Source: Candidatus Iainarchaeum sp. (GTDB lineage: Archaea; Iainarchaeota; Iainarchaeia; Iainarchaeales; CSSED10-239). Taken from it: a stretch of DNA of 32,000 bases. Of this stretch, positions 3,527 through 28,651 are shown piece after piece. Under the pieces are notes generated by a model, which did no database searches, was not told the origin of the DNA, and saw nothing but the letters and a program-made list of their open reading frames with translations. The stretch lies in contig JBBISB010000001.1 in the NCBI GenBank assembly GCA_037441475.1, positions 36,418-68,417 on the forward strand, read 5' to 3'. Each line of letters begins with the position of its first letter. The stretch's first letter is position 1. The position numbers and the translations under genes were made by a program.

Positions 3527-4576
3527 ATGTCCTCAAAAAAGAAAATTGGGCTTCCAGCAGGATCATTAGTATACACTGGTGATAAATCTCAAGATCTAAA
3601 GATTGAAGTTATTGAATACTCTACAGATCTTTATTCTCAAAAAGAAATGAGTTTAGATGACTTTTTAAAATTTCAAAAGAAAAAAGACTCAAAAATATGG
3701 GTAAATGTTATTGGTATTAATAATTCTTTAGCTATTTAAAAGATTGGTGAAAAGTACTCTATTAACTCCTTAGTTTTAGAAGATATTTTAAATATTAACC
3801 AAAGACCTAAGATAGATGATTTTCAAGATTATTTTTTCACAGTCTTTAGATCCTTTACTTTTAATGAAACTGAAAAAAAGATTAATGTTGAACAAATAAG
3901 TTTAGTTGTCTTTAAAGATATTTTATTTAACTTTCAAGAAAAAGAAACAGCTATCTTTAATCCATTAAAAACAAGATTAAGTAATGGTTCTTTTTCAAAA
4001 ATAAAAAATCATTATTCTGATTTTTTAGCATACGCTATTATTGATGTTGTTGTTGATAATTACTTTTTAGCCTTAGATGATCTTAATCGTCATGTAGATG
4101 ATGTTTATGAGGTTATCTTAGATAAACCAAGCTCTTCAAATGTCTCTGAGATTAATAAACTTAAAAAAGACTTAATTCTTTTAAGAAAATCAGTATGGCC
4201 ATTAAGAGAAAACATAAATAAGGTTTTAAAAGAAGAAATAAAACTTGTCTCTAAATCAACATTAATCTATTATAGAGATATTTATGATCACATTATACAC
4301 ACTATTGATATGATTGAAACAACAAGAGATATTGTTTCAAGCCTAATGGATATTTATCTTTCAACTATTAGTAACAGAATGAATGAGATTATGAAGGTTT
4401 TAACCATCTTTTCTACAATCTTTATACCCCTAACCTTCATTGTTGGACTTTATGGTATGAATTTTATTTATCTTCCTGAGTTTCAATGGAAGTATGGATA
4501 TCTTTTTGTATGGGTTATTATCTTAACTGTTGCAGGTTCTATGCTTTTGTTTTTTAGAAAAAGAAAATGGATTTAA
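3527..4576 (+). pseudogene. corA: CorA-type Mg2+/Co2+ transporter interrupted by one in-frame TAA (3737-3739)
   Basis: A single frame from 3527 to 4576 reads through to the CorA hallmarks LVLEDILNINQRPKIDDF and the two C-terminal TM helices with YGMNF. The only break is TAA at 3737-3739 (..NSLAI*KIGEKY..). Confidence 0.8.
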
Positions 4577-8997: not shown

Positions 8998-9609
8998 ATG
9001 ATGCTGATATCAATATTACAGGTACTTTTAGTTTTTGTTTTACCTGTGTATCTTTTATACAAAAAGATTATTCCTTTCAAGTATAGGTTGCATGTTCTTT
9101 TTGCTATTTTTTTAGTTGTTATTGTTTTTATTTATTTAGAGGGAATGACTTTTTATGATCTTGGTATAAGGTTTGATAATATTGATTCTCATATCTTTCC
9201 TTACATAGCCTTTACTGTTCTTGTTTCCTTTGCTATTTATTATCTTTCAAAGTATGTTTTAAAAAGAGAGTATTATATCCATTATTGGCATGAAAAGAGA
9301 TTTCATATAATGATATTTATTCCTCTATCATTCTTGCAGGAGTTTATCTTTAGAGGGTATTTAATACCTAAGCTTTTTGATATTTTTACATCTTCAATAA
9401 TTGTTGCTTTTGTAAACGCCTTACTTTTCATGTATATACATGTTGTTTACAGTAATAAAAATATTGATCTTATTTTGGTTTTCTTAGAAGGATTTTTACT
9501 TGCGATGATTTATATTTTCTATCCGAACTTAATATTTGCAACAATTGCTCACTCTATGCATAACTTTATAGCTATTTTCTTTAAGTTTTTTATAGATGAG
9601 AGAGTTTAA
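8998..9609 (+). CDS. CPBP-family intramembrane glutamic protease (CAAX protease-like)
   Basis: Polytopic 203-aa protein with LQEFIFRGYL (ExxxR-type motif), FMYIHV (FxxxH) and HSMHNF (HxxxN/D). Confidence 0.7.
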   Translation: MMLISILQVLLVFVLPVYLLYKKIIPFKYRLHVLFAIFLVVIVFIYLEGMTFYDLGIRFDNIDSHIFPYIAFTVLVSFAIYYLSKYVLKREYYIHYWHEKRFHIMIFIPLSFLQEFIFRGYLIPKLFDIFTSSIIVAFVNALLFMYIHVVYSNKNIDLILVFLEGFLLAMIYIFYPNLIFATIAHSMHNFIAIFFKFFIDERV

Positions 9610-9732: not shown

Positions 9733-11561
9733 ATGTGTGGAATTGTAGGTTATATTGGAAAAAGAGATGTTTTACCTCTCTTGGTTAATGCTCTTTTAAG
9801 GTTAGAGTATAGAGGGTATGACTCCTGTGGTGTTTCTTTTTTAATAAATGGAAAAGTTGAAACAGTTAAGACAAAAGGGAAAGTTTTAACCTTAAAAGAA
9901 AAGATTGATTTTACAAGAAAAGCAAGCCTAGGTATTGCACATACAAGATGGGCTACACATTGAGAGCCTTCTGACATTAATTCACATCCTCACACTGATT
10001 CTTTAAATAAAATAACACTTGTTCATAATGGTATTATAGAAAATTATGAAAGTTTAAAAAAATTTCTTTTAACAAAAGGGTTTACCTTTAAATCACAAAC
10101 AGATTCTGAAGTATTCGCTGCATTAATCTCTTACTTTTATAAAGATGACCTTAAAGATGCGGTTTTAAAAGCAATATCACAAGTTGTAGGTACCTTTGGT
10201 ATACTGGTTATATCAGAGGGTAAACGTGAGATTGTTGTTGCAAGAAAAGGATCTCCAGTTGTTTTAGGTATTGGAAAAGAAGAATATTTTATAGTAAGTG
10301 ATACTTCTGCTATCTTAGAGTATACAAAAGAAGTTGTTTATTTAGAGGATGATGAAATTGTTTTAATAAACGATGAAGGATATTTGATAACTAACTTTAA
10401 TAATGAAAAGATAGATAAAGAAGTTGAAACACTTTCAATAACTATTGATCAAATAGAAAAGCAAGGCTTTAAACATTTCATGCTTAAGGAAATATATGAA
10501 CAGAAAGCCTCTATTAAGAATGCACTTGCAGGAAGACTTAATTTTTCTGAAAAGCAGGTTGTTTTAGGTGGTCTTGATTTTATAACTTTAGAATATTTAA
10601 AAAAATTAAAAAAAATATTTATTTTAGCATGTGGAACCTCTTGGCACTGTGCTTTAGTTTCAAAGTTTATTATTGAAAAGTATTTAAAAATTTCAGTTGA
10701 AGTTGACTATGCCTCTGAGTTTAGGTATAGAGACCCTTTAGTAGACCAAGATACTCTTGTTATTGTTATTTCTCAATCAGGGGAGACTGCAGACACATTA
10801 GCTGCTTTAAGAAAAGCTAAGAGAAAGAAGGCAAGAATCTTAGGGATTGTAAATGTTGTTGGTTCAACAATTGCAAGAGAAGCAGGATGTGGGATATATA
10901 CAAGGGCTGGACCTGAAATTGGTGTTGCCTCTACAAGGCTTTTACAAACCAGTTGGTGTCTATTTGGCTTTTAACTTTATTTGTTGGACAAAAGAATGGT
11001 TTAATCTCTCTTGAGGATAGAGAAAAGATTATTAAAAACCTCTCTTCTTTACCAGATATTCTTTTTGAAACAATTGAAGATAATCTTGAAACTATTAAGG
11101 AAATATCTAAAAGTTTTAAAGACTCTAAAAACTTTTTATATCTTGGAAGAGGGATTAATTACCCTATTGCCTTAGAAGGAGCCTTGAAGCTTAAGGAGAT
11201 ATCATATATTCATGCTGAAGGGTATCCTGCTGCTGAGATGAAGCATGGGCCTATTGCCTTGATTGATAAACAGATGCCTTGTGTTTTTATTGTAAACAAG
11301 AATAACAATTATGAAAAAGTAATTTCAAACATTAATGAGGTTAAGGCAAGGGGTGGTATTATTATCTCTGTTGCAACTGAAGGTGATGTTGATATTAAAA
11401 AAATATCTGACTTTGTAATATATGTAAAAGATATTGATAATGACTTTACTCCTTTTATTAATGTTGTTATAATGCAATTTCTTTCTTACTGTATATCAGA
11501 TCTTAAGGGATGTAATATTGATAAACCTAGAAACCTTGCAAAGTCTGTTACTGTTGAATAG
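9733..11561 (+). pseudogene. glmS: glutamine--fructose-6-phosphate aminotransferase, disrupted by an in-frame TGA (9961-9963) and a 1-nt frameshift (about 10933-10937)
   Basis: MCGIVGY...GIAHTRWATH*EPSDINSHPH places TGA where the invariant Gly of HTRWATHGxPS belongs. The SIS region reads GPEIGVAST, then shifts frame: acaagg versus the expected acaaagg would give KAFTNQLVSIWLL. The product ends with the canonical KSVTVE. Confidence 0.9.
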
Positions 11562-15668: not shown

Positions 15669-18600
15669 CTATTTTCTTTTCTTATAAATCTCTTTTCTTG
15701 AAAACAAGTACATGAAACTTGCCATAATCACTAAGACATAAAGAGTGAATGGAAGGATCTTTTCTGGAGCAAGAGGGATGTTTAAAGAACCTCTATCACT
15801 ACCTCCAGAACCTGCAAATGGGTTTAAAAGATTCTGAACTGTTGTTCCATATACCTTACCATCTTCCCCAGGTTTAAAAGTTACACCATCCCTGTATTCT
15901 GGGTTGAAAGGTATTAAATGACCATTTTCTGTATACCAGTTACCAGTCTTTGGATCATACCAGAAAGCACCATTCTTTCCTTGTGCTGAAAGTAAGGTCT
16001 CTGTTAGGTCATTATACTTTAATTTTGGAATACCGTCTTCTGCTGAAAACTCAAATTTATGCTCTTGACCATCCTCTGTGGTTACTATAAAACCATCAGG
16101 GGTAGTTAGAATAGAGCTTATAGCTTGATCAATAACTTGTCCAGTTTTTTTATCAATAATCTTCATTCTTTGTTGACATTCTGGAGCTGGTGTTGTATAG
16201 AAAATAAAAGTCTTTGAGGCTGTATCAAACATTTGGAAAGGACCTACTTTTTCTAAAGCCTTGTTCATTTCAACAGACTTTGCAACAGCTTCAGGGTTTG
16301 ACATGTCAGGAGAAATACTCATCTCAAAGGCATTCTCTTCACAGCCTGTAACTGGGTTTGTTTCTTTAATAGGCTTAACATCCATCCCTTTAATCTCAGA
16401 TTGATGCATTACATATGTTTGTTGAACCCACATTATGTAACTGTTTTTTTCTCCGTTGTATATTAATTGTCCTCTTTCAAACTGAACAGCTATGTTTTTA
16501 CCAATAGTTACTTCTTTACCTTCTATAGGGAAAAGCTTAGTTGTTCTATCTCCTAGGACAGTTATTCTTGATGCCTCACCAGAGGCTATTTTTCTTGGTG
16601 TTCCTTCAGCAACTATTTCTAAGCTATTACTTCTTCCTTTTGGTATTAAGTCATACTGTGTTTCAGGAGAGATTTGGTTTGTTGAAGTAACTTGTTTTAC
16701 AGCACCTAAATAATCTGTTAAAACATTGCCTGACATTTCAAGACCAGTTTGTTCATAGTAGTTTGTTTTTAAACAATTTAAGAAATTAATATCTTCTATT
16801 TTTAAGTTACCATAAACATCTATGTTAAACAAAGGAGTGTTTGTGTCTGGAACTGGGATATAGGATATACTGTGAGGAACAACTTTTGCTGGAATACCAA
16901 GGTTTGTTGCTATTAAACGTACCCAATCTTTATTTTCTGGACCAATTATTCTCTTGATATTTCCATCTTTATCAACAATGTTCATTTCTCCTTTTTCCTT
17001 ATCAACTATTAAGGTATCTACTGTTGTCTTATCTATTAAGTGTTCAACACCTTTGTCGTTATAACCGCTTGCTCTACAACTTGAGGCCTCTCCAAGTTCA
17101 AAGAAGAAAAGTTTTCCATCAAATGAAGCTGATGTGTTACCTATAGTTTCTATTCTTGATTGCATTATTGGATTGTCTTTTATTTTTGTTTCAGCAAACT
17201 GTTTTACTTCTTGTGTTGTTTTTGTAATTGATTCTTGAAGTTCTGTGTTTTTTGTAATGTTTGTTAAGGTCTTTTCAACAGAGTATGCACCTTTTGAGAT
17301 TGCATCTCCAACTTTGTTTTTAGGGTCTTTTTCTATTCTTTCAAACTCCTCTTGTGCAACAAAGAAGTGAGTGTAGTAACCTTCTTCATGATCTACACAG
17401 TTGTATATTTCAGGAACAATTACAAGTTGAGGTAAGATATCACCAAAGATTGCACCTAAGACTATTCTATGTTGAGGAACACTTAAGGAATAATAAATTA
17501 CATTTGAAAAACCAGCAGCAACTGCACCTGCTCTATATGATTGACCTGTCCATTGATTTGTCCACCCTATTGGTATTCCCATAACCTCTAGGTTTCTAAG
17601 TTTAGCTGAACATGTTTCTTCTTCTTTTATAGCTGTTAAAAGATTCACTGAGTTTTCTGTTTTAAAACCAGCTAAAGAACCATCATAGTCTGTGTGGTGA
17701 GAGAAAGCTATTAATGTTTTACCATATTTTTCAAAGTTTTCTCTAGAGGTGTTTTCTAAAAGATAACTTGTTGTTGTAACACCTGTGCTTGTTTGATAGT
17801 TAAGATGTAAGTTGTCATTTATATTTGTACCAATTGTTTGTTTTGCATCTATTGATCTACTTTTTGTAATTTCTTCAAGAAGTCTTGTGTCTCCTATCTT
17901 AATTTGACATGCATTTGTGTTACATGTTTTCATAGTGTCTGTAAGTAAAGCTATGTTATCTGTAAAGCTTCTTCTTATATGCCCTTCAGTAACGTTTCTT
18001 ACCCAGTCTGAAAAGCCTTGTGTTGTTTGCCATTCTGTACTTTCAAGTGCTCCTTTTGGAAGGTTTACCATCCAGAAGATAATTGAGTTAATGTATTGCA
18101 TGAAAAGATCTCCTTGATCAGAACCATCGTTTGCAAAGAAATCTATGTAGGAGTCATTATAGATATCTCCAGTTTCTCCATGTTTAAAGATTACTGATGT
18201 GTATGTTTCTGGTATTCTAAACATACTGTATCTATCAAATGCTCCCCCAAGTAAAGTAGAACCAGCTGTCTTAAATTGCCAGTATCCAAAGTTATAAAGG
18301 TAAGCTTTTCCTGAATCTGCAATAATATCAAATGCTCTTTTATCCCATTGAGTAATTGTTTGTTGTTTCATTCTTTGGTTTATATAGTTTAAACCTCTTC
18401 CTGTACTCCAACCTTGATTATTTAAGACAGTTACAACACCGTCTGTTACTAGTTCAGCATCTTTTATTTTCTTAGCCCCCATTTCTTGGAAATAACCTAA
18501 GGAAACTTCTAAAGGGTTAATTCCGTATTTTGGAAGATCTGCATCTGGAATTCCTGTTTCAATAATATTTCTCATGTTTATAGGTTCATTTGGTTTTATA

Positions 18601-20588
18601 TCAGCCATATCAATTACAGAACCTCTTACTGATTTTGCAGTTCCGTCTTGGGCAATATATTCTATTAAGACATCTGGTTTTTTATTGTATATAATATCAT
18701 TAAAGTTTAATGGATTTGCAGCACCTGTTGTTTCTTTGAAAGGAATAATAACATCTATTTGTTTAGGACCATCTGCAAAGTTAACTGTTATTCTTTTTGT
18801 TTCAAAATTATTCATGAAATTATCTGCAACAAGATTACCTGCATTATCAGTTTTATAAGGAGCATCTGTTAACATATCTCTAAACTTCTTTGACGAAGTA
18901 AGCTCTGTTGTTGTAATTTCATTTTTAAGCCTTACTTTATTCATCAGTTCATCTTTATTATTAATTATTTTACCTCTTTCTTTTAAAAGAGTTATATCTT
19001 TAGCTCCATCATCCCATTTGAAGTGTCCATTTGAAAATGCAGAGAATTCTTTATTAAGTTTATTTGCTCTTAAGACTTCTTCTGTTAACTTATCATATTG
19101 ATCTTTTGTTAAAGAAGCATAAAAGTCTTCCATTGTTTTTGTTTTATTAAATAAAATATCTGATGAACCTGGAGCTATTTTTTTAATATTTGCAGAAGTA
19201 ATGTCTTGCATCATTCTAGCTGTTCTTATGTTGCTTTGATATTCTAAGACAGATTCCATGAAAACTCTTTGTTGAGATTTATTAAGTTTTGCAAAAGTTC
19301 CTGAACCAAAGAATTCATTTTTAATTGTGTCTACATTCTTTTTAGAGTTTAAGGCATCAAGATATTTATCAAACTCAGGCTTCATATTGTATCTGTCTAT
19401 GTTGTATGTAATTTTTTTATTACTTTGTGCAAGATTTGATATATAATCATCCATGTTTTTTGATATTTTATTGTATCTATAAGTTGATACTGCAGAATCA
19501 AGAACACCCATATTATTTGTTAAATTATCAAAGAAACCATGTTTTCCTCTTATTCCACCTATAGCTTTATCATTAATTAGTTTTGTATTTCCTATTGATT
19601 TTGGAATGTTTTTAAAAACTCTACCTGTGAATTTCCATAACATAGGAGAGACAGATGTAAAAACAAGATCTGCTGAGTAATACATGTTAAAGACTTTATC
19701 AAACAAAGAGTACATGTTTATGTAACAGTTATCAGAGTTACAGGTACTCTCCATACTTGCATTAAAAGAATCTGTAATTATACTGTTTTTTATAGCTTCA
19801 TCTAAAATTAATTGCATTGATCTTATTTCTGCTTCTGTTATATTACTATCATCTGAGAATTGTATTTTTCTAAACTCAGCAAGCTCTTCATAAGACATGT
19901 TTGAAAATAAACCTAAATCTACATTTGAGTTGTAATCAAGAGAAGGATCTATTATTTCATTTGCAGCTTGACCTAAATCATCCAGACGTAATCTTTCAAT
20001 TAATAGCATGTCTATTAAATCTCTGCTAATAGACTTTGCTTGAGGGAAAAAACCATACTTTCCATTCTGTCTGAAAAGACCTTCATTTTCTAAGTAACAT
20101 GCAAAAGCATCTCCTCCTTGACATCTACCTACTCTTAGGGTATCTTTAAGATCTAAACCATGTGAGAAAGGACCATAACACACTTGTCCTAGAACAGTTG
20201 GAATTTCTAAAGGACTCATTAATTGATTTGGAATTTCTGTTTTACCTACAACATCATTTGCTTTTGTGTCTTTTGAAGTTATTAAAACTTGACTTTGATC
20301 CATTGTTTCTCTATTAAAGTTTGCTGGTTGATCACTGGATAAAAGATCTACTTTAAAACCCTTTACTAAAATTTCATTCCATAACCTCTCTACAGCTTCT
20401 GGAGATAACTCCTCTGTGTAACATGCAGAGCCCATGCTACTTGGGTTATAGCTTATTGGAACAGCATCTTGAAAGTAGAGAGTAGTATTATTTTTTGAAG
20501 ATAATCTATCTACATCTATGGAAGATGCAAAGACTCCATTTATCATTAATAATAAGAAAAATATTGCCAGTAGTTTATTTTTATTCAT
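15669..20588 (-). CDS. 1,639-aa orphan secreted protein with a C-terminal membrane anchor (candidate adhesin or S-layer-like surface protein)
   Basis: The N-terminal signal peptide is MNKNKLLAIFFLLLMINGVFA|SS. The C-terminus is a TM helix plus basic tail (ILPFTLYVLVIMASFMYLFSRKEIYKKRK). It has many N-x-S/T sequons and scattered Cys. No domain recognised. Confidence 0.85.
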   Translation of the reverse strand: MNKNKLLAIFFLLLMINGVFASSIDVDRLSSKNNTTLYFQDAVPISYNPSSMGSACYTEELSPEAVERLWNEILVKGFKVDLLSSDQPANFNRETMDQSQVLITSKDTKANDVVGKTEIPNQLMSPLEIPTVLGQVCYGPFSHGLDLKDTLRVGRCQGGDAFACYLENEGLFRQNGKYGFFPQAKSISRDLIDMLLIERLRLDDLGQAANEIIDPSLDYNSNVDLGLFSNMSYEELAEFRKIQFSDDSNITEAEIRSMQLILDEAIKNSIITDSFNASMESTCNSDNCYINMYSLFDKVFNMYYSADLVFTSVSPMLWKFTGRVFKNIPKSIGNTKLINDKAIGGIRGKHGFFDNLTNNMGVLDSAVSTYRYNKISKNMDDYISNLAQSNKKITYNIDRYNMKPEFDKYLDALNSKKNVDTIKNEFFGSGTFAKLNKSQQRVFMESVLEYQSNIRTARMMQDITSANIKKIAPGSSDILFNKTKTMEDFYASLTKDQYDKLTEEVLRANKLNKEFSAFSNGHFKWDDGAKDITLLKERGKIINNKDELMNKVRLKNEITTTELTSSKKFRDMLTDAPYKTDNAGNLVADNFMNNFETKRITVNFADGPKQIDVIIPFKETTGAANPLNFNDIIYNKKPDVLIEYIAQDGTAKSVRGSVIDMADIKPNEPINMRNIIETGIPDADLPKYGINPLEVSLGYFQEMGAKKIKDAELVTDGVVTVLNNQGWSTGRGLNYINQRMKQQTITQWDKRAFDIIADSGKAYLYNFGYWQFKTAGSTLLGGAFDRYSMFRIPETYTSVIFKHGETGDIYNDSYIDFFANDGSDQGDLFMQYINSIIFWMVNLPKGALESTEWQTTQGFSDWVRNVTEGHIRRSFTDNIALLTDTMKTCNTNACQIKIGDTRLLEEITKSRSIDAKQTIGTNINDNLHLNYQTSTGVTTTSYLLENTSRENFEKYGKTLIAFSHHTDYDGSLAGFKTENSVNLLTAIKEEETCSAKLRNLEVMGIPIGWTNQWTGQSYRAGAVAAGFSNVIYYSLSVPQHRIVLGAIFGDILPQLVIVPEIYNCVDHEEGYYTHFFVAQEEFERIEKDPKNKVGDAISKGAYSVEKTLTNITKNTELQESITKTTQEVKQFAETKIKDNPIMQSRIETIGNTSASFDGKLFFFELGEASSCRASGYNDKGVEHLIDKTTVDTLIVDKEKGEMNIVDKDGNIKRIIGPENKDWVRLIATNLGIPAKVVPHSISYIPVPDTNTPLFNIDVYGNLKIEDINFLNCLKTNYYEQTGLEMSGNVLTDYLGAVKQVTSTNQISPETQYDLIPKGRSNSLEIVAEGTPRKIASGEASRITVLGDRTTKLFPIEGKEVTIGKNIAVQFERGQLIYNGEKNSYIMWVQQTYVMHQSEIKGMDVKPIKETNPVTGCEENAFEMSISPDMSNPEAVAKSVEMNKALEKVGPFQMFDTASKTFIFYTTPAPECQQRMKIIDKKTGQVIDQAISSILTTPDGFIVTTEDGQEHKFEFSAEDGIPKLKYNDLTETLLSAQGKNGAFWYDPKTGNWYTENGHLIPFNPEYRDGVTFKPGEDGKVYGTTVQNLLNPFAGSGGSDRGSLNIPLAPEKILPFTLYVLVIMASFMYLFSRKEIYKKRK

Positions 20589-20601
20589 AATTTATCCTTT
20601 T

Positions 20602-21099
20602 TTATAGGTATATTAAATATATTAAAATTGCTATTAATTTTGGAAATATTAAAAGAATAATAAAGAAGATGATGTTTGTTAAGATCAAACTCTTTATTAA
20701 ATTAAGGTTTGTTTTTGGATGTTTCTTTTTTTCATTAAACTTATCGTAGAAGGCAAGGGTAATAAAAGAGAAGCCTAAAAAGACACCAGATATTAAAATA
20801 TTAACTATTAATAATCTTATTAAGTGATAGAAGATTATACCAAGGATGTTTAAGAAGCTAACTCCTTTAAAGATACTTAGGAGTGGTAAAAAGTATATTA
20901 AAAGTAAGATAATATAGCTTAAAATAAAAATTATTATAAAAAGAGAAAAGATAACACTTTTTTTCTTTCTTAAAAGAAGATATTTATTTTTAAAAATTTT
21001 AATAAGTATGAAAAAAGGAATAGCACAAAGAATAGATAAACCAATTAATTTTACTATTGTCAATAAATAATTTAAAACCACTTGAAATAAATTTTCCAT
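20602..21099 (-). CDS. polytopic membrane protein (165 aa), immediately upstream of and co-oriented with the giant protein gene
   Basis: About five hydrophobic helices separated by Lys-rich loops. It stops 13 nt before the giant ORF start. No family recognised. Confidence 0.6.
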   Translation of the reverse strand: MENLFQVVLNYLLTIVKLIGLSILCAIPFFILIKIFKNKYLLLRKKKSVIFSLFIIIFILSYIILLLIYFLPLLSIFKGVSFLNILGIIFYHLIRLLIVNILISGVFLGFSFITLAFYDKFNEKKKHPKTNLNLIKSLILTNIIFFIILLIFPKLIAILIYLIYL

Positions 21100-21216
21100 A
21101 TAATCCTCTTTAATAAATATATATTGCTATTATATAGTAAATTGAAAGATTTAAAAGCCTTATTATATATATTTTATTATATAGATATATTTATAACTAT
21201 TAAGGATTAGACAAAT

Positions 21217-21888
21217 ATGGACGTTCAAAACATACCAAGAAGAGAAAGAAGGCATTTTAGGAAATATATAGATGGTGAGATTGTTTATTCTGAGGTTCCT
21301 TTTGGACATGAAGAAAAACATAATTATTCTAAAAATAATGATTTTTCTAAAAATAATGATACAACTGTTAAGAATCTTCTTGATATTGATGGTAAGAGAA
21401 AACCTGTTTTGCATGATGATCAAAAAATACAGAAGGTTTTACAAAATATATCTGATATTGTGTCTCCAGATTTAGACTCTGTTGCTGAAGCTATTTATCA
21501 CCAGATAAGTAAGGATAGTAGTTTTAATGATTTTAAGAAAGAAGAGATTGAAGAGACTATTAAAGGAAGTAAACATTATAGGGCTATAAAGAATGATAAG
21601 AATCAAGAGATTATTGATTCTGATAATATGAAGTTATTGGTTGAAGATGTTTTTATTCAACTTGAGAATGAAAACAAAGAAAGTAACCCTTCTGAAAAGA
21701 AAGAAGCTGTAAAAGAATCTTCTTCTAAATGTAAAAAAGAACCTGCTTCTAAGGGAAAGAAAGAGGATTTAAAGAAAGTTAAAAAGAAAGAAGAAAAATC
21801 AGAGATTCAAGATTTATTGGACGATGATTCTGATGAAATTGATTTTGATGAAGAAGATAGTGATGATGATTTAGGCCTTAAATTTTAA
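21217..21888 (+). CDS. acidic/Lys-rich low-complexity protein with a DDDLGLKF C-terminus
   Basis: 223-aa ATG ORF on the opposite strand, between the two minus-strand units. The C-terminal third is KKE-rich and then Asp/Glu-rich. Its stop overlaps the convergent gene's stop by 4 nt. Confidence 0.6.
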   Translation: MDVQNIPRRERRHFRKYIDGEIVYSEVPFGHEEKHNYSKNNDFSKNNDTTVKNLLDIDGKRKPVLHDDQKIQKVLQNISDIVSPDLDSVAEAIYHQISKDSSFNDFKKEEIEETIKGSKHYRAIKNDKNQEIIDSDNMKLLVEDVFIQLENENKESNPSEKKEAVKESSSKCKKEPASKGKKEDLKKVKKKEEKSEIQDLLDDDSDEIDFDEEDSDDDLGLKF

Positions 21889-22643
21889 GGTTCTTCTGGA
21901 TCTTGATATTCTTTACATCTAAGGTTTGATATGTTTTCATTTTGTTCAAAAGTAGAACTAAGTAACTGATTATTTATACTGCTTGTTGATGGCCACATCG
22001 TTAAGCTTGCAACTGTTCTTACTTCTGCTAATCTAGAATCTAGGGTCTTAAAGATTAATGGTGTTGAAGAAGAGTAGAGTTTGTTTGATCTTTGTACCAA
22101 GTATCTTACTGGGGTAATACTTATTGGATCACATAAATAGTATTTTGAGACTATTTCTAAATCTGGTTTAATTTCATTTATTTTTAACATAAAGTAAATA
22201 AAATCATCATTACTAGTATTTTGGATATAATAAATATAATCATAGTTTGGTAAAGGATGCATTAATGATTTTATGGTATGGAAGAGATTATACTTTGCAA
22301 GATCTTTAACATTTTCTTTATTAAGAGAATTTACATCACTTCCACCTATCTTTTGATTAAAAAGATAATCACTTTTTATAGCTGTAATCAAGTAATCAGT
22401 TTCTTTACTATTTAAAATATTTTTATCAAAATCTAAAGGAATATTTGTGTAGTAGATGGCCTTAAGGCTGGAGTTTGTATATTCTTTGAAGTATAGGTTA
22501 TTTATAGCAAGATCTATTCTTTCTCCGTATGTTGAGGAAAATTTGAAAAGAAGAACACATAAGGCAACAATGATTGTTAAGAAAAATAAAGAGTCTGTCA
22601 TTGCTGCTTGACCTTTATCATTCTTAAGTTCTATTAATTTCAT
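21885..22643 (-). CDS. pilin-like protein with a class III signal peptide (252 aa)
   Basis: The N-terminus is MKLIELKNDKG|QAAMTDSLFFLTIIVALCVLLF, i.e. a [KR]G|Q site followed by a hydrophobic helix. It is paralogous to the N-terminus of ORF 24712..25260. Confidence 0.6.
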   Translation of the reverse strand: MKLIELKNDKGQAAMTDSLFFLTIIVALCVLLFKFSSTYGERIDLAINNLYFKEYTNSSLKAIYYTNIPLDFDKNILNSKETDYLITAIKSDYLFNQKIGGSDVNSLNKENVKDLAKYNLFHTIKSLMHPLPNYDYIYYIQNTSNDDFIYFMLKINEIKPDLEIVSKYYLCDPISITPVRYLVQRSNKLYSSSTPLIFKTLDSRLAEVRTVASLTMWPSTSSINNQLLSSTFEQNENISNLRCKEYQDPEEP

Positions 22644-22650
22644 AAATATT

Positions 22651-23178
22651 TTACTCCCATATTAAAACATACAATCTTGCTGTTGTTGAAAAACCATTAT
22701 CTCTTTGTAGGATAATTGGATAAAGGTAGTTGATGTGATTTTTTGAAAGATCTTTTAATTGTTTTAAATTTTCTTCTTCTTCGTTACATATAAAATAATC
22801 TGGTGTACTAGGGTCATTTTTAAGGCTTGAAAGAACTATTGATTCATGGTTATCAGATATTTCTTGGAGAGAAATATTTGCATAATCTTCAGTATCTAAG
22901 GGAAGATCTATAAGAAAGGCATTCCATTTTTTTGTAGTTTTTATTTTATCACATTTATCTTTGAAATGTTGGTAATCAACAATAACAGGATCTGATTTTA
23001 ATTGCATAGAAATTTCAATTGCTTCTTGGTTTAAGGTGTATGTTTTGTTTTTAGCATTATAATCATTGAAGGTACCTAAAAAAACTGCAAAGAAAACAAC
23101 TAAACCTAGAAATATTGGTATTAAACTAGGAAGGTCATCTCCGATTGCTCCAATAAATCCTTTTTTTGTTTTAATCAT
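22651..23178 (-). CDS. pilin-like / N-terminally anchored secreted protein (175 aa), degenerate class III signal
   Basis: MIKTKKG|FIGAIGDDLPSLIPIFLGLVVFFAVFLG is followed by a soluble domain with 2 Cys. Confidence 0.5.
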   Translation of the reverse strand: MIKTKKGFIGAIGDDLPSLIPIFLGLVVFFAVFLGTFNDYNAKNKTYTLNQEAIEISMQLKSDPVIVDYQHFKDKCDKIKTTKKWNAFLIDLPLDTEDYANISLQEISDNHESIVLSSLKNDPSTPDYFICNEEEENLKQLKDLSKNHINYLYPIILQRDNGFSTTARLYVLIWE

Positions 23179-23198
23179 TTTTTATCATTTTTTAAAAA

Positions 23199-23855
23199 TT
23201 ATTCAGAAACTTGTGTTGCACAAAAGCTCCCTGTTATATTTTCACCAAGACATTTAATTTCTTCTCTATTAAAGTTATCTAAATTACATACATACTCTCT
23301 GCAAGTGTAAAGATTATTTTTTCTTCCACAAGGAAGTACATAATAATAACTTTGACTATCTTTTACATTTTTTATAAACATAAATTTAGTTTCATTTGAG
23401 TTTGCTTTTCTAGGGTCATAGATTATTTGTTGATTATTTTCTTGGGAAAAAGAATAATTTCCGTTAGCATAAGTAGAAGAATAGAAAGCAATGGTTCCAT
23501 TATAATCAAGGTTGTATGCACCTAAAATATTTCTTTCTCTATAATCTGTTAAATAGATTATTAAAGATTGATTATTAAGTTGCTGGTAGCTTTGTAGCCC
23601 TAGCTTATAGGGGGTTCCTGAAAGAGAGGAACCTTCATTTATTTTTATGGTTTTTGGAATATCAATAAACTTTACTGAACAGTAGCTATCTGAGTCTATT
23701 AAGGATTTAATCTCTTTACCTATCTTAAAGGCAGTTTCATAACTTTGTCTTGTCTTAAGGTTATCATTTAAAGTGTTCATAAAGAAGATTACAACTACAG
23801 CTATTGCTGTAACAAAGATAAGCATATTTATTTTTGATAAAGTAAATTCAAACAT
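23199..23855 (-). CDS. Cys-rich pilin-like protein (218 aa) with an atypical short leader
   Basis: The N-terminus MFEFTLSKINMLIFVTAIAVVVIFF recalls FTLxE-type pilin N-termini but lacks a K/R-G leader. It has 7 Cys, clustered near the C-terminus (CGRKNNLYTCREYVCN...CLGENITGSFC). Confidence 0.5.
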   Translation of the reverse strand: MFEFTLSKINMLIFVTAIAVVVIFFMNTLNDNLKTRQSYETAFKIGKEIKSLIDSDSYCSVKFIDIPKTIKINEGSSLSGTPYKLGLQSYQQLNNQSLIIYLTDYRERNILGAYNLDYNGTIAFYSSTYANGNYSFSQENNQQIIYDPRKANSNETKFMFIKNVKDSQSYYYVLPCGRKNNLYTCREYVCNLDNFNREEIKCLGENITGSFCATQVSE

Positions 23856-23864
23856 CTATTAATT

Positions 23865-24434
23865 TCACCTTGTTTTAATCATACAAATAGTATGATTAGC
23901 TCCTGAACCTGATTTTTTAAAAATCTTGTATCTTCCAGAGGGTATCTTTTCTATAGGGTTAATTGCTTCTTCTGATGCTTCTAAAGGGGCACATTGATTT
24001 TCACCAATTTCAAATTGTAGGTTTGTTGGAAGATAGGTACAGATAGGAGGAATTGGTTGTTTATAATCTAGCTTTTCTGGATTTTCATAAGAGTATTCTA
24101 AAAGAACACAACTTGTACCTGACCCACATATTCTTTCACATCTATCTTTATCATCTGAAATAATATTTAATCTAACCATTTCATATTTATCATTATAACA
24201 AGCCTTGGTTGTAAAATCAATAGTTCTGTATGCAAGATCTGAACCTAAAACTATTTCTCTTAAAGAAGAATTAAGATTACTAAAGTCTTGTCTTTTGTTT
24301 CCAAGACAGGTATTTTCATTTAAGTTTGCAAGAGCATAGTTACCTGCAATAATAACAAAAGTCATTACTATAATTGCAACTAAAAGTTCAAAAGGAGCAC
24401 TCATTTGTGCTTTTTGTTTTTTACTTGAATACAT
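23865..24434 (-). CDS. Cys-rich pilin-like protein (189 aa), class III-like signal (KA|Q)
   Basis: MYSSKKQKA|QMSAPFELLVAIIVMTFVIIAG at the N-terminus. There are 10 Cys in the soluble domain, including DRCERICGSGTSCV. Confidence 0.55.
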   Translation of the reverse strand: MYSSKKQKAQMSAPFELLVAIIVMTFVIIAGNYALANLNENTCLGNKRQDFSNLNSSLREIVLGSDLAYRTIDFTTKACYNDKYEMVRLNIISDDKDRCERICGSGTSCVLLEYSYENPEKLDYKQPIPPICTYLPTNLQFEIGENQCAPLEASEEAINPIEKIPSGRYKIFKKSGSGANHTICMIKTR

Positions 24435-24503
24435 ATATTATAAAGATATTATAAGAAGTATTTAAAATAGTTATCTTTTTTTAAAATAAATAAAAAAAGG
24501 CTT

Positions 24504-24704
24504 CTACTGAACAGGAGCTGACTGTACTGGAAGAGCTGCTTGTTTTGCAGAAGTTTTAACAGATTTATTAAACATTGGTTTTATAACAGCGATAAGGACG
24601 ATTGCAACAATTGCTATTACAACTAAAAAGAAAATTGTGTTAGACTCTGTTTGTCCTCTTTGATCATTTAAGATCTGTTTTATTTTCTTTTTAATTGTTT
24701 TCAT
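24504..24704 (-). CDS. minimal Flp-like pilin (66-aa precursor)
   Basis: MKTIKKKIKQILNDQRG|QTESNTIFFLVVIAIVAIVLIAVI is followed by a 25-aa tail only, ending AALPVQSAPVQ. Confidence 0.6.
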   Translation of the reverse strand: MKTIKKKIKQILNDQRGQTESNTIFFLVVIAIVAIVLIAVIKPMFNKSVKTSAKQAALPVQSAPVQ

Positions 24705-24711
24705 ATCTCAA

Positions 24712-25260
24712 TCACTCTTTTACAGGGAATACAATACATACTCTTGAACTATTTGTGGATTCGAATCCTGATTCAGTTATATCCAATTCTGATAAAATAT
24801 TATTTGAAAGTGAGCTTGAAGAAGTTATAAAATTATCTAATCTTTCAGCATCTCTATGACATAAGACTCCAAATTTATAATTTATTCTTTCTGATTTTTT
24901 TATTTGAAGTATTTGTCCATCAGAAGAAACTCCAAAATCAGATGAATATTTGGAAGGCACAATAAATTTTACACTTTCAGGATCCATTCCTGATCCATCA
25001 GTAATTGCATCTGTGGCAACTGTTCCTTGAGTTTTAGAAGATACTTTAATAGATTCTGTAAGTGTTATTGTTCCTGGTAAGTCTTGATTACTTTTTATTT
25101 TTTCTTTAACACTATCAGTAATATTTCCTCCCGCAGGATTTATTCCACCAATTATTGGCATTAAAACACCAAGAAGGGCAAGAGCAACAACAGCAGCTAT
25201 CAGTAATTGAAATGTTGAGAATGCTTGACCTTTACTATTTTTTAAAGATATTAATTTCAT
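24712..25260 (-). CDS. pilin-like protein with a class III signal peptide (182 aa)
   Basis: MKLISLKNSKG|QAFSTFQLLIAAVVALALLGVLM at the N-terminus. The Q at +1 and the hydrophobic helix match archaeal DUF361/EppA-type pilins. Confidence 0.65.
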   Translation of the reverse strand: MKLISLKNSKGQAFSTFQLLIAAVVALALLGVLMPIIGGINPAGGNITDSVKEKIKSNQDLPGTITLTESIKVSSKTQGTVATDAITDGSGMDPESVKFIVPSKYSSDFGVSSDGQILQIKKSERINYKFGVLCHRDAERLDNFITSSSSLSNNILSELDITESGFESTNSSRVCIVFPVKE

Positions 25261-25341
25261 ATTAATTTTTCACCTCAAATATATAATAATATATAAAAAC
25301 TAATTAATTTTAAAGTCCAAAAGATATTTAAATGTTATTCT

Positions 25342-25839
25342 TTAAAAGAAAATTAAACCTTTTACAATACTTAAGGAAATTGTAAAAATAACAGGTATTA
25401 ATATCATAAATACAACCTCTTTTGTCTGTATACCAGCTCTTGGTTCCTTGTAATCAAAAACTTTGTTTTTATAAGTAACTCTTCTTCTAACTATTAAAAT
25501 ATTCCATAAAGAACCAAAAATAAAAGCAGAGATTGCCCAAATAACAGTTATCTTTAGATTAAAACTTGAAATCTTCATTATGCTTTTCCAAAAAAGCATT
25601 AAAACACCGTAAGAGACACCTAAAGAAAAGAACATTGTTATAAACAATTTTACTTTTCTGTTTAAGAAGAAATCTAAGGATTTACTAAATATTAAAGATA
25701 TTAAGAACAAAAGGCTCATTAAAACAACAATTAAGGCAATTATTGCTAAGATAATAATTCCAAAGAAATAACCAAAGACAAGGACGATTATGGCAAGTAA
25801 AAAATATTTAATGTTTCCTGTCCAACTTCTTTTTCTCAT
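25342..25839 (-). CDS. polytopic membrane protein (165 aa) embedded in the pilin operon
   Basis: Four to five TM helices. It lacks the paired-Asp/GxGD motif of prepilin peptidases. No family recognised. Confidence 0.55.
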   Translation of the reverse strand: MRKRSWTGNIKYFLLAIIVLVFGYFFGIIILAIIALIVVLMSLLFLISLIFSKSLDFFLNRKVKLFITMFFSLGVSYGVLMLFWKSIMKISSFNLKITVIWAISAFIFGSLWNILIVRRRVTYKNKVFDYKEPRAGIQTKEVVFMILIPVIFTISLSIVKGLIFF

Positions 25840-25856
25840 TCTTTAAAACCATTTTT

Positions 25857-26384
25857 TTAATTTGTTAAACCTTTTGGTATCTTGTTGATGTACATTACAC
25901 AGAAAAGTCTTTCACAATCATCTGGATCATTTATAGGCGCATTTGCATAAGTTGTGATCTCAGAATATGTTTCAGTATTAGTTAAATCCGAAATAGACAT
26001 TCCACTTAAACCACAAACAAAATAAACATCTGTTTTAAGATATTTTTTATCAATAACAGCACCATAATTTTCAAGCTTAACACCTGGACCTACAATAAAA
26101 GAAAAACATCCTTCTTCAATGTTTCCAAGCTGCTCATACCTTGAGTGACTAATAATACCTCTTACTAAAACATCTTTAACAACAAAAGGTTTATCCATAC
26201 TTATTATTGGACTGTTTATAGCAGATATAAAGGCATCTTCTATCTTTTGATTACTAATAATTATTGCTTGGTCATTTGTTTTGTTAACCATCATAATAAT
26301 AATACCAAGGATGGCTACAGAGATTACAAAAGCTATCAAAAGTTGATATGCTTCAAAAGCCTGTCCTTTATTATTTTTAATCAT
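25857..26384 (-). CDS. pilin-like protein with a class III signal peptide (175 aa)
   Basis: MIKNNKG|QAFEAYQLLIAFVISVAILGIIIMMV at the N-terminus, with 5 Cys in the soluble domain. Confidence 0.65.
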   Translation of the reverse strand: MIKNNKGQAFEAYQLLIAFVISVAILGIIIMMVNKTNDQAIIISNQKIEDAFISAINSPIISMDKPFVVKDVLVRGIISHSRYEQLGNIEEGCFSFIVGPGVKLENYGAVIDKKYLKTDVYFVCGLSGMSISDLTNTETYSEITTYANAPINDPDDCERLFCVMYINKIPKGLTN

Positions 26385-26410
26385 ATTTAAAAGTCTTTTT
26401 TAATTTTTTT

Positions 26411-28651
26411 TTAAAACATCATGTTAGCTAAGATAGTTGTTAAGATAAAAAGAATAGTTGCAACAGGAAGAGTTTGTGCAATCCTTACTTTTGTTAAAAT
26501 ACTGTTCTCTTGCTCTATCATGGTTGTAAAGTAAACAATAATTATAACAATCTGTATAACATAGATAGCAACAATTATTAAAAATGTTGTAGAATCTGCA
26601 AACTTTGCAATATTTGTAGGGTCAATGGAGGTACCTAGACCAGAGATACTTGAAGTGTTTATACTTCCACCAATAGCACTCACTCCTGAGCTTATACCTT
26701 GAACCATCTTATCCATATCATCCATAACATTACTTGAGGCAATGGAATTTAGAGTTGACATTACTATTCTTTGAAGAGCAGTTGTTATACCTAAGATAAT
26801 AGGTGCAATATACTTAGCCATACTGTTTAATGTCCCTGTAATATCTGCAATCAAGCTTGAAAGCATTTTAGAAACTTCATCTGTATTTCTAAGTTGCATA
26901 GAATAAGACATTAATGTCTTTGCAGCAACTGAAACTCCAAGCTGTACTGAATCAACAACTAATAGCATTGCACTATTAATTAATCTTGAAGGATTGTTCT
27001 TTAAAGCACCGTAGTTAGGATCAAACAATGAGGCCTTTAAATTAAGACCCATTATTCTTATATTGTCCAAGGTTTTTGCAAAAACATTTTGTGCAATCAA
27101 AGAGTTTGGTAAAAAGTTTCTTGTATGGTTTAAGGCCTCTTCAATAGGTTTATTTTCACCAAGTCTACTTGCAATAATGTAAAGAGCATCCTTAAACTCT
27201 TCTTCCATTTTTTGTGATTTTACCTGAACTCTTCTTTTGTAGATACTTGTTCCATAAAGATAAATTGATATTAAAAAACTTATTAATAGTAAGGAACCAT
27301 AAATGATATAGTAAGGAGTTGTGTCATTCTCTGTTTTTAACCAAAAATCCCTCTCAGTTTGACATTGGAACTTAGATTCTTTAGCTTTTAAAACAAGCTC
27401 CTCTGTGGTACACATAAAATCAGCATCACTTACACTTTCTCCTTCTGAGATGTACCCTTCATTAAGAAGAATATTGTATTTTGTTTTTCCTAAAGTGCTT
27501 TGCAGAAAAACACTTGTCCCTATTAAGATAACTCCAACAATTATCATTAACATAAAAACATTTATTTTAAAATTTCCAAAAACCATAGTGTTTTTAGGAG
27601 GAAGATCAGGGTGGTTATCAGGGATTACAGGTGGAAGGTACGTTATTGGTCTTTCCCTTATTACCTTTCTTGCAAAGATAAAACAACCTAAGGGAATTGC
27701 AATATTGTAAATTAAGATTAAATAAACTGGTCTTGCAAGAGAAGAATCTGAGAAAGCAGAACCAACTGGTAGAATAATTATTAAAAGAAGAGGAAGTAGA
27801 ATACCTAAATAAAACATAACCATTGCAGGTTGAGATAAACCCCTTGCATACTCTTCAAGTTTTCCTTTTATAGAAGAAAGAGTATCCTCCATGGTGTTAT
27901 CTAGGATTTGATATCTTTTTGATTCTGAAATTTCAATAACACTTGATCTTATTTTCATTAAAGACTTTTTAAACTCTTGAGAGACATCTCCCCATTTATA
28001 GGCAAGCTCATCAACAGCCTCAGCAACACTTCCTTTAATACCGACCTTAACTTCCCATAATAAAGTTTTTAGGTCCTCAGCTATCTTTCCATGACCATGG
28101 TTTGATGCAAACTCAATTGCTTTTTCAAGGTTTGGTACAAGTTTCATAGACATTATCATATACCCTAAGATTTCAGGAACAAAGGTTAAGGCATATACTT
28201 TTTCAAGATCAACTTTTCTTTGTGGATAGTTTTTAAAATAATTTATGGCATAGATGTATCCTATTAAAGGACCACCAATTGAAAAAATAGTTGGAATCAT
28301 TGCACTTCCAAACATCTTAATTAAGCTTGGCATTGCATAAAGATATAAAAGTAAGACTGTTACAAAAGTTATTATAAATCCACCAAAGATAACTGTCTTA
28401 TAACCAGCAAAATATTCTTCTGACTTTAAATCCCATTTTAGAAAGTCAATAGCATTTTGTAACTTTTCATCAAATTTTGTGTTTCTACCAAGAGAAGGAA
28501 ATTGTTGATATGCCTTTTTACAAAAAACAACATATTTATTTTCAACTTTTTTTGAAAGTCTTTCTTCATCTAGAGAAAAATCTCTTGCTTCTATGGATAT
28601 TGAACTATACAACTGGCCAGGGCTTTTTCTTGGTGTTTTTGTCTGATCCAT
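26411..28651 (-). CDS. 746-aa polytopic membrane protein with two T2SS-F-like halves (FlaJ/TadC/EpdJ-type type IV filament platform; provisional)
   Basis: It has two cytoplasmic helical-bundle-like segments, each followed by TM helices: LVPNLEKAIEFASNHGHGKIAEDLKTLLWEVKVGIKGSVAEAVDELAYKW and FKDALYIIASRLGENKPIEEALNHTRNFLPNSLIAQNVFAKTLDNIRIMGLNL. It is the first gene of the pilin operon. The call was made by eye only. Confidence 0.55.
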   Translation of the reverse strand: MDQTKTPRKSPGQLYSSISIEARDFSLDEERLSKKVENKYVVFCKKAYQQFPSLGRNTKFDEKLQNAIDFLKWDLKSEEYFAGYKTVIFGGFIITFVTVLLLYLYAMPSLIKMFGSAMIPTIFSIGGPLIGYIYAINYFKNYPQRKVDLEKVYALTFVPEILGYMIMSMKLVPNLEKAIEFASNHGHGKIAEDLKTLLWEVKVGIKGSVAEAVDELAYKWGDVSQEFKKSLMKIRSSVIEISESKRYQILDNTMEDTLSSIKGKLEEYARGLSQPAMVMFYLGILLPLLLIIILPVGSAFSDSSLARPVYLILIYNIAIPLGCFIFARKVIRERPITYLPPVIPDNHPDLPPKNTMVFGNFKINVFMLMIIVGVILIGTSVFLQSTLGKTKYNILLNEGYISEGESVSDADFMCTTEELVLKAKESKFQCQTERDFWLKTENDTTPYYIIYGSLLLISFLISIYLYGTSIYKRRVQVKSQKMEEEFKDALYIIASRLGENKPIEEALNHTRNFLPNSLIAQNVFAKTLDNIRIMGLNLKASLFDPNYGALKNNPSRLINSAMLLVVDSVQLGVSVAAKTLMSYSMQLRNTDEVSKMLSSLIADITGTLNSMAKYIAPIILGITTALQRIVMSTLNSIASSNVMDDMDKMVQGISSGVSAIGGSINTSSISGLGTSIDPTNIAKFADSTTFLIIVAIYVIQIVIIIVYFTTMIEQENSILTKVRIAQTLPVATILFILTTILANMMF

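Follow-up and report, generated by a model that had tools for sequence, protein, structure and literature searches.

A candidate type IV filament gene cluster with a giant anchored surface protein in Iainarchaeota

A block of twelve open reading frames (ORFs) was analyzed at positions 15669..28651 of a 32,000-nucleotide stretch of archaeal DNA (Candidatus Iainarchaeum sp., contig JBBISB010000001.1), referred to here at its full length as the window. The block is probably a single conserved archaeal type IV filament (TFF) gene cluster, in which a giant protein of 1,639 residues serves as a dedicated surface element. It was assigned to the TFF because it encodes a platform protein of the T2SSF family, small proteins with class III-type signals and a 66-aa pilin consisting of little but a helix, and because related loci carry a T2SSE ATPase. 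The cluster is confined to the Iainarchaeota ('Diapherotrites') and a few metagenome-assembled genomes (MAGs) labelled Micrarchaeota. An initial annotation of the window had proposed that the filament genes and the giant gene belong together. The comparison of genomes that it called for was carried out and the outcome was unequivocal; the two halves are syntenic in essentially every related locus, whichever half is used as the anchor.

Synteny of the filament genes and the giant gene

Two sets of loci were compared, consisting of 30 genome loci and several metagenome contigs anchored on the giant gene, and 80 metagenome loci anchored on the platform gene. The ORFs of the giant-anchored set were scored with iterated hidden Markov models of the window proteins. 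In this set, 13 non-redundant loci extend 8 kb or more upstream, and each of them holds the platform gene together with the complete pilin set, arranged alike. The shared order is the platform, a 175-aa pilin, a 165-aa membrane protein that is not always present, the 182-aa and 66-aa pilins, the 189-aa, 218-aa, second 175-aa (175b) and 252-aa proteins, one or more opposite-strand genes, a small membrane protein and the giant. Among the 28 platform-anchored loci with at least 9 kb of downstream DNA, the giant gene is in the canonical position in 26. In one further locus (L105:189-17805), an inversion has placed the giant and its membrane partner beside the minor-pilin block within the same cluster; the platform and three pilin genes follow, with an ATPase gene 1.8 kb further on. 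The last locus (L119) stops 4.2 kb past the last pilin gene and could not be scored.

The gene order holds where the identity of the giant has fallen to 22-30% and the flanking genes are unrelated. The most distant members (giant E 1e-12 to 1e-21; loci L038-L040) retain orthologues of every component. The closest relatives share the flanks too, namely ferredoxin, AP endonuclease and lysyl-tRNA synthetase genes. Since the linkage persists at large divergence, it is not explained by the common ancestry of close relatives, and the recurrence of the same genes in the same order across dozens of divergent genomes places the arrangement far from chance. Obligate members of the cluster include the giant, its small membrane partner and the cytoplasmic protein encoded on the opposite strand.

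Genes were called by ORF listing, membrane and signal segments were predicted by a hydropathy scan and families were matched against Pfam and NCBIfam. The description of the block in the initial annotation was borne out by the ORF listing, the public gene calls for the contig and the hydropathy scan; eleven of the twelve ORFs lie on the minus strand and all 11 of their products carry a signal or membrane segment. The intergenic gaps among the minus-strand genes are 7-81 nt. The single plus-strand gene (21217..21888) overlaps the end of the converging gene 21885..22643 by 4 nt, and this convergent gene divides the minus-strand genes into an upstream transcription unit (28651 to 21885) and a downstream one (21099 to 15669). 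An AT-rich, divergent intergenic region of 117 nt (21100..21216), read directly from the sequence, is presumed to contain the promoters of the plus-strand gene and of the operon encoding the small membrane protein and the giant. Start codons are preceded by GAGG/AGGA ribosome-binding-like motifs, and the G+C content of the 32-kb window is 28%. Neither Pfam nor NCBIfam gave an above-threshold match to any of the 12 block proteins, T2SSF appearing for the 746-aa protein at a sub-threshold level only. Both scans agree with the earlier statement that no enzyme, ATPase, peptidase or regulator is encoded inside the block. In addition, no tRNA gene and no Rfam family at threshold was found over window positions 1-32000.

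The window derives from a Forterrea-like member of the Iainarchaeota ("Diapherotrites"), a DPANN phylum, because the full-length homologues of the giant come from this group. These homologues (44-73% identity) are encoded by MAGs named Candidatus ainarchaeum, Diapherotrites or Iainarchaeum, and the complete genome of Ca. Forterrea multitransposorum encodes one with 73% identity. Compared with the deeper-branching clades, the window clade has a ferredoxin gene in place of the ATPase gene, an extra 165-aa membrane protein after the first pilin, an opposite-strand protein without the zinc ribbon and a lysyl-tRNA synthetase gene after the giant.

Platform, motor and pilin-like proteins

The 746-aa platform protein (26411..28651, minus strand) was identified by its T2SSF match and multiple hydrophobic segments as a divergent member of the T2SSF / TadC / FlaJ family. 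T2SSF was matched by 16 of 17 diverse members of the platform family, with a best E of 2.7e-6. More than 411 homologues were found, mainly in Diapherotrites/Iainarchaeota, and several of these are annotated as T2SS (type II secretion system) F family.

In the deeper-branching clades, a gene encoding an ATPase of ~760 aa lies immediately upstream of the platform gene. The protein matches Pfam T2SSE at 60 bits, and its nearest solved structures and NCBIfam models are A. fulgidus GspE2, Tad CpaF and archaellar FlaI. This arrangement was seen in 15 of the 25 loci counted outside the window clade that have >2.5 kb of upstream DNA, two of the 25 being window-clade loci that are cut short. In the window clade, the position upstream of the platform is taken by a ferredoxin gene, and 30 of the 31 loci lack the ATPase within the DNA examined (up to +/-10 kb); one locus has a short T2SSE gene 3 kb upstream. 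A prepilin peptidase of the FlaK, PibD or EppA type was detected neither in the window nor in any fetched locus. The block is thus not the self-contained apparatus that had been suggested, since the ATPase adjoins the platform in relatives but not in the window clade, and relatives also carry an archaeosortase-family gene a few kb further upstream. We infer that the missing machinery of the window clade is encoded elsewhere in the genome. ATPases encoded apart from the pilin loci are common in archaea (PMC4858521), and the description of the complete genome of Ca. Forterrea, a close relative, mentions a secretion-related ATPase (PMC5905446).

Two further observations were made on the ATPases of the related loci. 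The T2SSE ATPase of the cluster contains an intein (Pfam Intein_splicing and LAGLIDADG_3) in a distant lineage (L038:1-1943). Additionally, another T2SSE ATPase, shorter than the first (~470-600 aa; Pfam T2SSE E 2e-36), is encoded on the opposite strand 4-6 kb downstream of the giant in many deeper-clade loci, for example at L031:18893-20320 (minus strand) and also in L021, L025-L027, L030, L032 and L034. This protein may serve as a second motor, or it may belong to a different system.

An N-terminal hydrophobic segment was found by the hydropathy scan in all seven pilin-like proteins. Six of the seven small-protein families have a class III-type signal, consisting of a basic leader that ends in [KR][GA], followed by Q (F/Y in one family) and then by a hydrophobic helix. 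The motif [KR][GAS] followed by [QFY] and a hydrophobic helix is present in 62-98% of the members of the six families, as compared to 2% of the control, which comprised 3,269 other ORFs from the same loci. These signals and the T2SSF matches fit the earlier proposal of a type IV filament with a 66-aa minimal pilin and Cys-rich minor pilins, three of the proteins having 8, 6 and 4 Cys.

The N-terminus of the first pilin-like protein (175 aa, 4 Cys; 25857..26384, minus strand), MIKNNKG followed by QAFEAYQLLIAF..., shows the class III-type motif and then a hydrophobic helix. In all loci, a member of this protein's family comes next after the platform. A paralogue, the 182-aa pilin-like protein (24712..25260, minus strand), has an N-terminus that reads ...NSKG and then QAFSTFQLLIAAVVALA; the motif was found in 57 of 71 distinct sequences of the latter family. 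The 66-aa protein (24504..24704, minus strand; ...DQRG followed by QTESNTIFFLVVIAIVAIVLIAVIKPMF...) is a minimal pilin without a globular domain, recognized by its motif and the conservation of its family. Members of this family, 48-98 aa in length with a conserved helix and a KPMF motif, are present in every cluster. By analogy, the 66-aa protein is probably the main filament subunit; a C-terminal globular domain is likewise missing from the Epd-specific pilin, which is the principal subunit of the methanococcal Epd pilus, and from the Tad pilin of bacteria (preprint 10.64898/2026.04.22.720090).

The four genes that follow, encoding proteins of 189, 218, 175 and 252 aa, form a 'minor pilin' block that begins with the 189-aa gene and shifts as a unit in rearranged loci. 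The 189-aa protein (23865..24434, minus strand) is Cys-rich, with 8 Cys and the N-terminus ...QKA before QMSAPFELLVAIIV, and 48 of 49 family members have the motif. The 218-aa protein (23199..23855, minus strand; 6 Cys) starts with MFEFTLSKINMLIFV and has an N-terminal anchor with no basic leader; its family is represented in all clusters. In the deeper clades, this family starts with MLGFTLSK, akin to a bacterial prepilin site (G before FTL) with a two-residue leader, while in the window clade the start is MFEFTLSK and the glycine is missing. The signal motif is present in 40 of 42 members of the 175b family (22651..23178, minus strand; MIKTKKG followed by FIGAIGDDLPSLIPIFLGL), in which the motif G(F/Y)(I/L)GxxGDDLPS is near-invariant, and likewise in 40 of 42 members of the 252-aa family (21885..22643, minus strand; ...NDKG followed by QAAMTDSLFFLTIIVAL). 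The 252-aa gene closes the upstream transcription unit and is present in all clusters. In a relative (L001:5044-5927 and L002:4060-4961), the pilin cluster is split between the 66-aa and Cys-rich pilin genes by a toxin-antitoxin-like pair (DUF3368 and UPF0175).

The giant protein and its neighbors

The giant (1,639 aa; 15669..20588, minus strand) has an N-terminal Sec-type signal peptide and a C-terminal anchor, as indicated by the hydropathy scan. When 1.84 billion representative proteins were searched exhaustively with a profile, 198 clusters of giants were returned; nearly all are 1,200-1,730 aa long and are matched at their C-terminal end. A second search with a profile of distant giants added one further protein only. 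The family as a whole spans 1,200-1,760 aa; where labels are given, they read Diapherotrites, with one distant subfamily labelled Micrarchaeota. Conservation is high over residues ~51-340 and ~700-1600 and low over the variable region in between (~341-700). No Pfam domain was detected in 19 members, and there was no NCBIfam or PDB sequence match.

The initial structure model of the giant (residues 694-1639, 16 sequences) was poor, with a predicted local distance difference test (pLDDT) score of 50, and the fold search made from it was uninformative. AlphaFold2 with an alignment of 49 sequences gave a mean pLDDT of 80.7, and residues ~1164-1579, the most conserved part of the protein, were mostly >90. 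This part (15852..17099, minus strand) is predicted to be an all-beta domain. When the domain was compared by Foldseek with the PDB and with the viral models of BFVD, only weak propeller-like matches were obtained (prob <=0.54, template modelling score ~0.1). A pair of hydrophobic helices at ~1018-1061 was considered as membrane segments and rejected; the pair is only moderately hydrophobic in relatives and is probably buried core. The best-conserved short motif of the giant is an invariant acidic loop, N-D-G-S-D-Q-G-D-L, at residues 820-828 (window 18105-18131, minus strand) within DFFANDGSDQGDLF. The loop is reminiscent in sequence of calcium-binding loops.

The C-terminus of the giant has the pattern of a tripartite signal (15672..15782, minus strand), made up of the motif NIPLAPE, a hydrophobic helix and the basic tail RKEIYKKRK. 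The consensus of the family is (F/L)N(I/L)P(L/S)(T/L)PE, followed by the helix and the basic tail. When all ORFs of at least 80 aa in the fetched loci were scanned for [LIV]PxxP[EQT] followed by a hydrophobic stretch and a basic tail, the pattern was found in 33 of 2,874 ORFs, and all 33 were giants. In about 16-17 deeper-clade loci, a gene beside the cluster has the TIGR04178 signature of the exosortase/archaeosortase family (42-47 bits, cut-off 23). It lies mostly 3-5 kb upstream of the platform, with the exceptions of L078 (~9 kb upstream) and L105 (downstream), and fits no named subfamily. ArtA processes the PGF-CTERM surface-layer (S-layer) protein (PMC5744192), and by analogy the giant may be cleaved at its PE-type motif and lipid-anchored.

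Other genes were noted near the sortase-family gene and the giant. In L006:1-5404 and L007:1-6470, the sortase-family gene is upstream of the ATPase gene and a polytopic membrane protein of 331-336 aa is encoded between them. The sortase-family gene of L006 and L007 also adjoins the gene for a second, larger protein of the deeper clades (2,631-2,797 aa), which has faint CarboxypepD_reg/SpaA matches. A CPBP/Rce1-like intramembrane protease is encoded within ~6-8 kb of the giant in the window clade (window 8998-9609, plus strand; L001:20707-21309; L003:22305-22925). Its similarity to the sorting-system protease MrtJ is weak (E 1.5e-4) and below the cut-off.

The upstream partner of the giant is a small polytopic membrane protein of 165 aa (20602..21099, minus strand), whose gene is separated from the giant gene by 13 nt. 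In nearly every locus the gene directly preceding the giant belongs to this family, whose members are 76-190 aa long elsewhere and 76-83 aa in the most distant lineages, and in the rearranged locus L105 it travels with the giant. The other 165-aa polytopic protein (25342..25839, minus strand; ~4 hydrophobic segments) is specific to the window (Forterrea-like) clade; the metagenome scan found it in 31 loci, and the deeper clades lack it. The two 165-aa proteins have no detectable similarity, and the possibility that they are paralogues was discarded. The proposal that the clade-specific protein is the relocated membrane half of the opposite-strand pair of the deeper clades was likewise rejected.

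The gene on the opposite strand (21217..21888, plus strand) encodes a cytoplasmic acidic protein of 223 aa with 55 D+E and 41 K+R and no hydrophobic segment. Its N-terminal part has the motif IPRRERRHFRKY, which is conserved in the window clade as (I/V/L)xRRE(R/K)R(H/F)(F/Y)R, and its C-terminal part has the motif DDLGLKF. The initial annotation had treated this gene as an interruption of the block. It is, however, a conserved member of the cluster, its position and orientation being kept throughout the clade. The same position in the deeper clades is occupied by a protein that starts with (I/V)PRRL(K/R)RF and ends in a double zinc ribbon (Pfam Zn_ribbon_3/DZR). This protein has, as a neighbor or as a fusion partner, a membrane protein characterized by the motif GY(L/I)FLRxGWP and a long charged tail. 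Homology between the acidic and zinc-ribbon proteins is suggested by their position and the shared N-terminal PRRxRR motif, but BLASTP and hhalign (24%) gave no support for it.

Elsewhere in the window, two genes appear to be disrupted. The glmS gene (glucosamine-6-phosphate synthase; 9733-11561, plus strand) is seemingly split into three or more ORFs, of which 9733..9963 encodes the N-terminal Cys/glutaminase start and 10384..10974 and 10953..11561 encode SIS domains. The first two pieces are separated by ~420 nt without an ORF, and a pseudogene or an assembly error is possible. Two fragments resembling the ends of a CorA-type magnesium channel were found at 3527-3739 (N-terminal) and 4310-4576 (C-terminal, YGMN motif), both on the plus strand and with ~570 nt lacking a long ORF between them. 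Furthermore, decapeptide repeats (Pfam PF25296, E 1e-166, 12 stretches) make up nearly the whole of an 810-aa protein encoded at 4740-7172 (plus strand).

Proposed system, rival readings and known systems

If the block is a TFF cluster, a peptidase encoded elsewhere would strip the leaders from the pilins, and an ATPase encoded elsewhere would drive polymerization of the 66-aa pilin on the platform. The 189-aa, 218-aa, 175b and 252-aa proteins would form a priming or tip complex comparable to the PilY1-bearing minor pilins of bacteria (discussed in PMC4858521). The giant would be exported by Sec and held in the membrane, together with its small membrane partner, through the archaeosortase-like C-terminal signal. 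Its conserved beta domain would then be membrane-proximal and couple to the filament base or the minor pilins, with the variable N-terminal region facing outward. Of the possible functions of the giant, an adhesin or contact role is favored.

Several observations weigh against this interpretation. The contact role is deduced from synteny and topology, and the giant is encoded in a transcription unit separate from that of the filament module. The T2SSF match of the window platform (E 0.0018) is under the curated cut-off. No Pfam or NCBIfam pilin model matches the pilin-like proteins, which were identified by their N-terminal motifs, and [KR][GA] followed by Q occurs in 0 of 49 members of the 218-aa family. 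ATPase, prepilin peptidase and archaeosortase genes were found neither in the window nor in the 9 kb past its platform end. NCBIfam, which holds curated models of C-terminal sorting domains, gave no match to the giant of the window or to that of L006. Moreover, the fold searches of the giant gave weak matches at best, and no fold was assigned to this orphan protein.

The main rival, which is possible but clearly less likely than the reading given above, holds that the giant is not an adhesin but an S-layer-like envelope protein, lipid-anchored by archaeosortase, and that its gene accompanies those of the filament machine because the filament has to be built through or anchored to the layer. 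The S-layer glycoprotein of Haloferax is lipid-anchored by archaeosortase. The topology of the giant is compatible with such a role, with its signal peptide and a C-terminal anchor bearing a sorting-signal-like motif, and an archaeosortase-family gene adjoins the cluster in relatives. The processing by ArtA provides a precedent (PMC5744192), and large C-terminally anchored proteins of pilus loci were taken as S-layer-like by Makarova et al. 2016 (PMC4858521). However, S-layer genes elsewhere are linked to pilus genes in some genomes only (PMC4858521), whereas the linkage of the giant to the pilus genes is essentially obligate and survives rearrangement. The giant has just 13 N-glycosylation sequons in its 1,639 residues. 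In the deeper clades, a better candidate for the envelope is the protein of 2,600-2,800 aa with immunoglobulin-like (CarboxypepD_reg/SpaA) matches beside the archaeosortase gene.

The possibility was also considered that the cluster encodes a short pseudopilus, acting as a piston for secretion or for the uptake of DNA or nutrients, with the giant and its membrane partner as conduit or cargo. The many minor pilins, the tiny major subunit and the two small membrane proteins would suit such a device, as would the minimal, nucleotide-centered metabolism of Forterrea (PMC5905446). This is nevertheless improbable, since no channel, nuclease or ComEC-like protein was found in any locus, and a giant with its own Sec signal and membrane anchor is not released cargo. 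It is more doubtful still that the cluster of the window lineage is a decaying remnant left after loss of the ATPase from the locus. The absence of the ATPase from nearly all loci of the clade, and the fragmented appearance of glmS and corA in the window, would be expected of decay. However, all twelve ORFs are intact, and motifs and lengths are kept over ~30 clade loci with 58-97% platform identity; the remote location of many archaeal ATPases (PMC4858521) and the Forterrea ATPase (PMC5905446) also argue against it. The view that the halves are unrelated neighbors, held together only by the close kinship of the genomes compared, could appeal to the housekeeping flanks that are also syntenic in the closest relatives. 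It is refuted by a linkage that outlasts different flanks, giant identities at or below 22-30% and an internal inversion.

The TFF cluster is a good candidate for the surface- or cell-attachment apparatus of these archaea. Genomes of the Iainarchaeota and their relatives measure ~0.7-1.2 Mb, and none is known to us in culture; it is a matter of dispute whether they live freely or as symbionts (PMC5905446). The cluster, at 13-16 kb, takes up ~2% of such a genome, is found group-wide and is made up almost wholly of genes for surface proteins without known relatives; it is therefore the most obvious genetic handle on surface or partner attachment in the group. A bolder version of the contact role, which we regard as unlikely, is that the cluster is a host-contact machine of Iainarchaeota-type DPANN. 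A short motor-driven filament with the four minor pilins at its tip would carry the cell to a partner. The giant, through its variable outer region and its conserved novel beta domain, would make a specific cell-cell contact, or even a membrane-breaching one, for nutrient uptake, and a new archaeosortase/signal pair would anchor the giant.

The most interesting parts of the cluster are the orphan giant and the candidate new sorting signal. The 66-aa pilin is offered as a target for cryo-electron microscopy of the filament, the beta domain and variable region of the giant as targets for binding studies and antibodies, and the signal and sortase as a candidate new pair. The cluster also adds a well-delimited subsystem at the phylum level that is unlisted in the current arCOG-based classifications of archaeal type IV filaments.

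The initial annotation had regarded the architecture as undescribed, which applies to the particular family and cluster but not to the general pattern. A catalogue by Makarova, Koonin and Albers from 2016 lists archaeal pilus loci that encode adhesins, additional membrane proteins and large "S-layer-like" proteins with a C-terminal anchor (PMC4858521), and the same authors noted dark-matter (unrecognizable) pilus islands in DPANN genomes in 2019 (PMC6393860). A 2026 preprint on archaeal filament systems assigns to DPANN system 1, Aap-like and 4A only, and the cluster is not mentioned (10.64898/2026.04.22.720090). No description of the cluster was found in full-text literature on Forterrea, on pili or archaeosortase of Iainarchaeota/Diapherotrites and on DPANN giant proteins, a coverage that lies outside subscription journals. 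A large anchored protein in an archaeal pilus locus is thus a described pattern, while the giant family itself is undescribed in the literature searched.

The loci of the 2016 catalogue, for example those of Thermoproteales clades 4B/4E/4G, resemble the cluster in combining an ATPase with a TadC-like platform and fast-evolving Cys-rich pilins, and in having extra membrane proteins and a large secreted protein whose one membrane helix lies at the C-terminus. The protein families, however, are different. Here there is one long platform gene, accessory proteins without a Pfam or NCBIfam match, a zinc-ribbon or acidic protein on the opposite strand and a giant (1,200-1,760 aa) that bears a C-terminal motif of its own, and the distribution is limited to Iainarchaeota-like DPANN. 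The Epd pilus, or TFF 'system 1', of Methanococcus maripaludis is likewise encoded in a multi-gene cluster (11 genes in system 1), with many minor pilins, Q at +1, a main pilin free of a globular domain and large adhesin-like proteins (PMC4858521; preprint 10.64898/2026.04.22.720090). Unlike the present cluster, system 1 has two platform genes, a peptidase within the cluster and DUF2341 adhesins. The cluster has one platform gene and no peptidase, and DUF2341 was found in 0 of 19 giants.

The ArtA/PGF-CTERM systems share with the cluster a tripartite C-terminus on a large surface protein and, in relatives of the window, an exosortase/archaeosortase-family gene beside the cluster. The motif, however, is (I/L)Px(L/T)PE rather than PGF, no curated sorting model is matched, the sortase subfamily is unnamed and the window contains no such gene. 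The bacterial Tad/Flp pilus is similar in that the ATPase of the relatives is near CpaF and in that its pilin is very small, barely more than one helix. It differs in that here secretin, TadZ and TadD are lacking, the signal motif is of the archaeal type and Pfam Flp_Fap misses the 66-aa protein.

The bacterial FimU-PilVWX-PilY1 module is also alike, consisting of four minor pilins and then a large non-pilin protein with a beta-rich C-terminal domain. There is no sequence relationship, the similarity to a propeller is weak (prob <=0.54), and a membrane protein and an opposite-strand gene intervene in the present cluster. PilY1 is not membrane-anchored. By analogy, the likeness to this module suggests a priming or tip complex that carries an adhesin.

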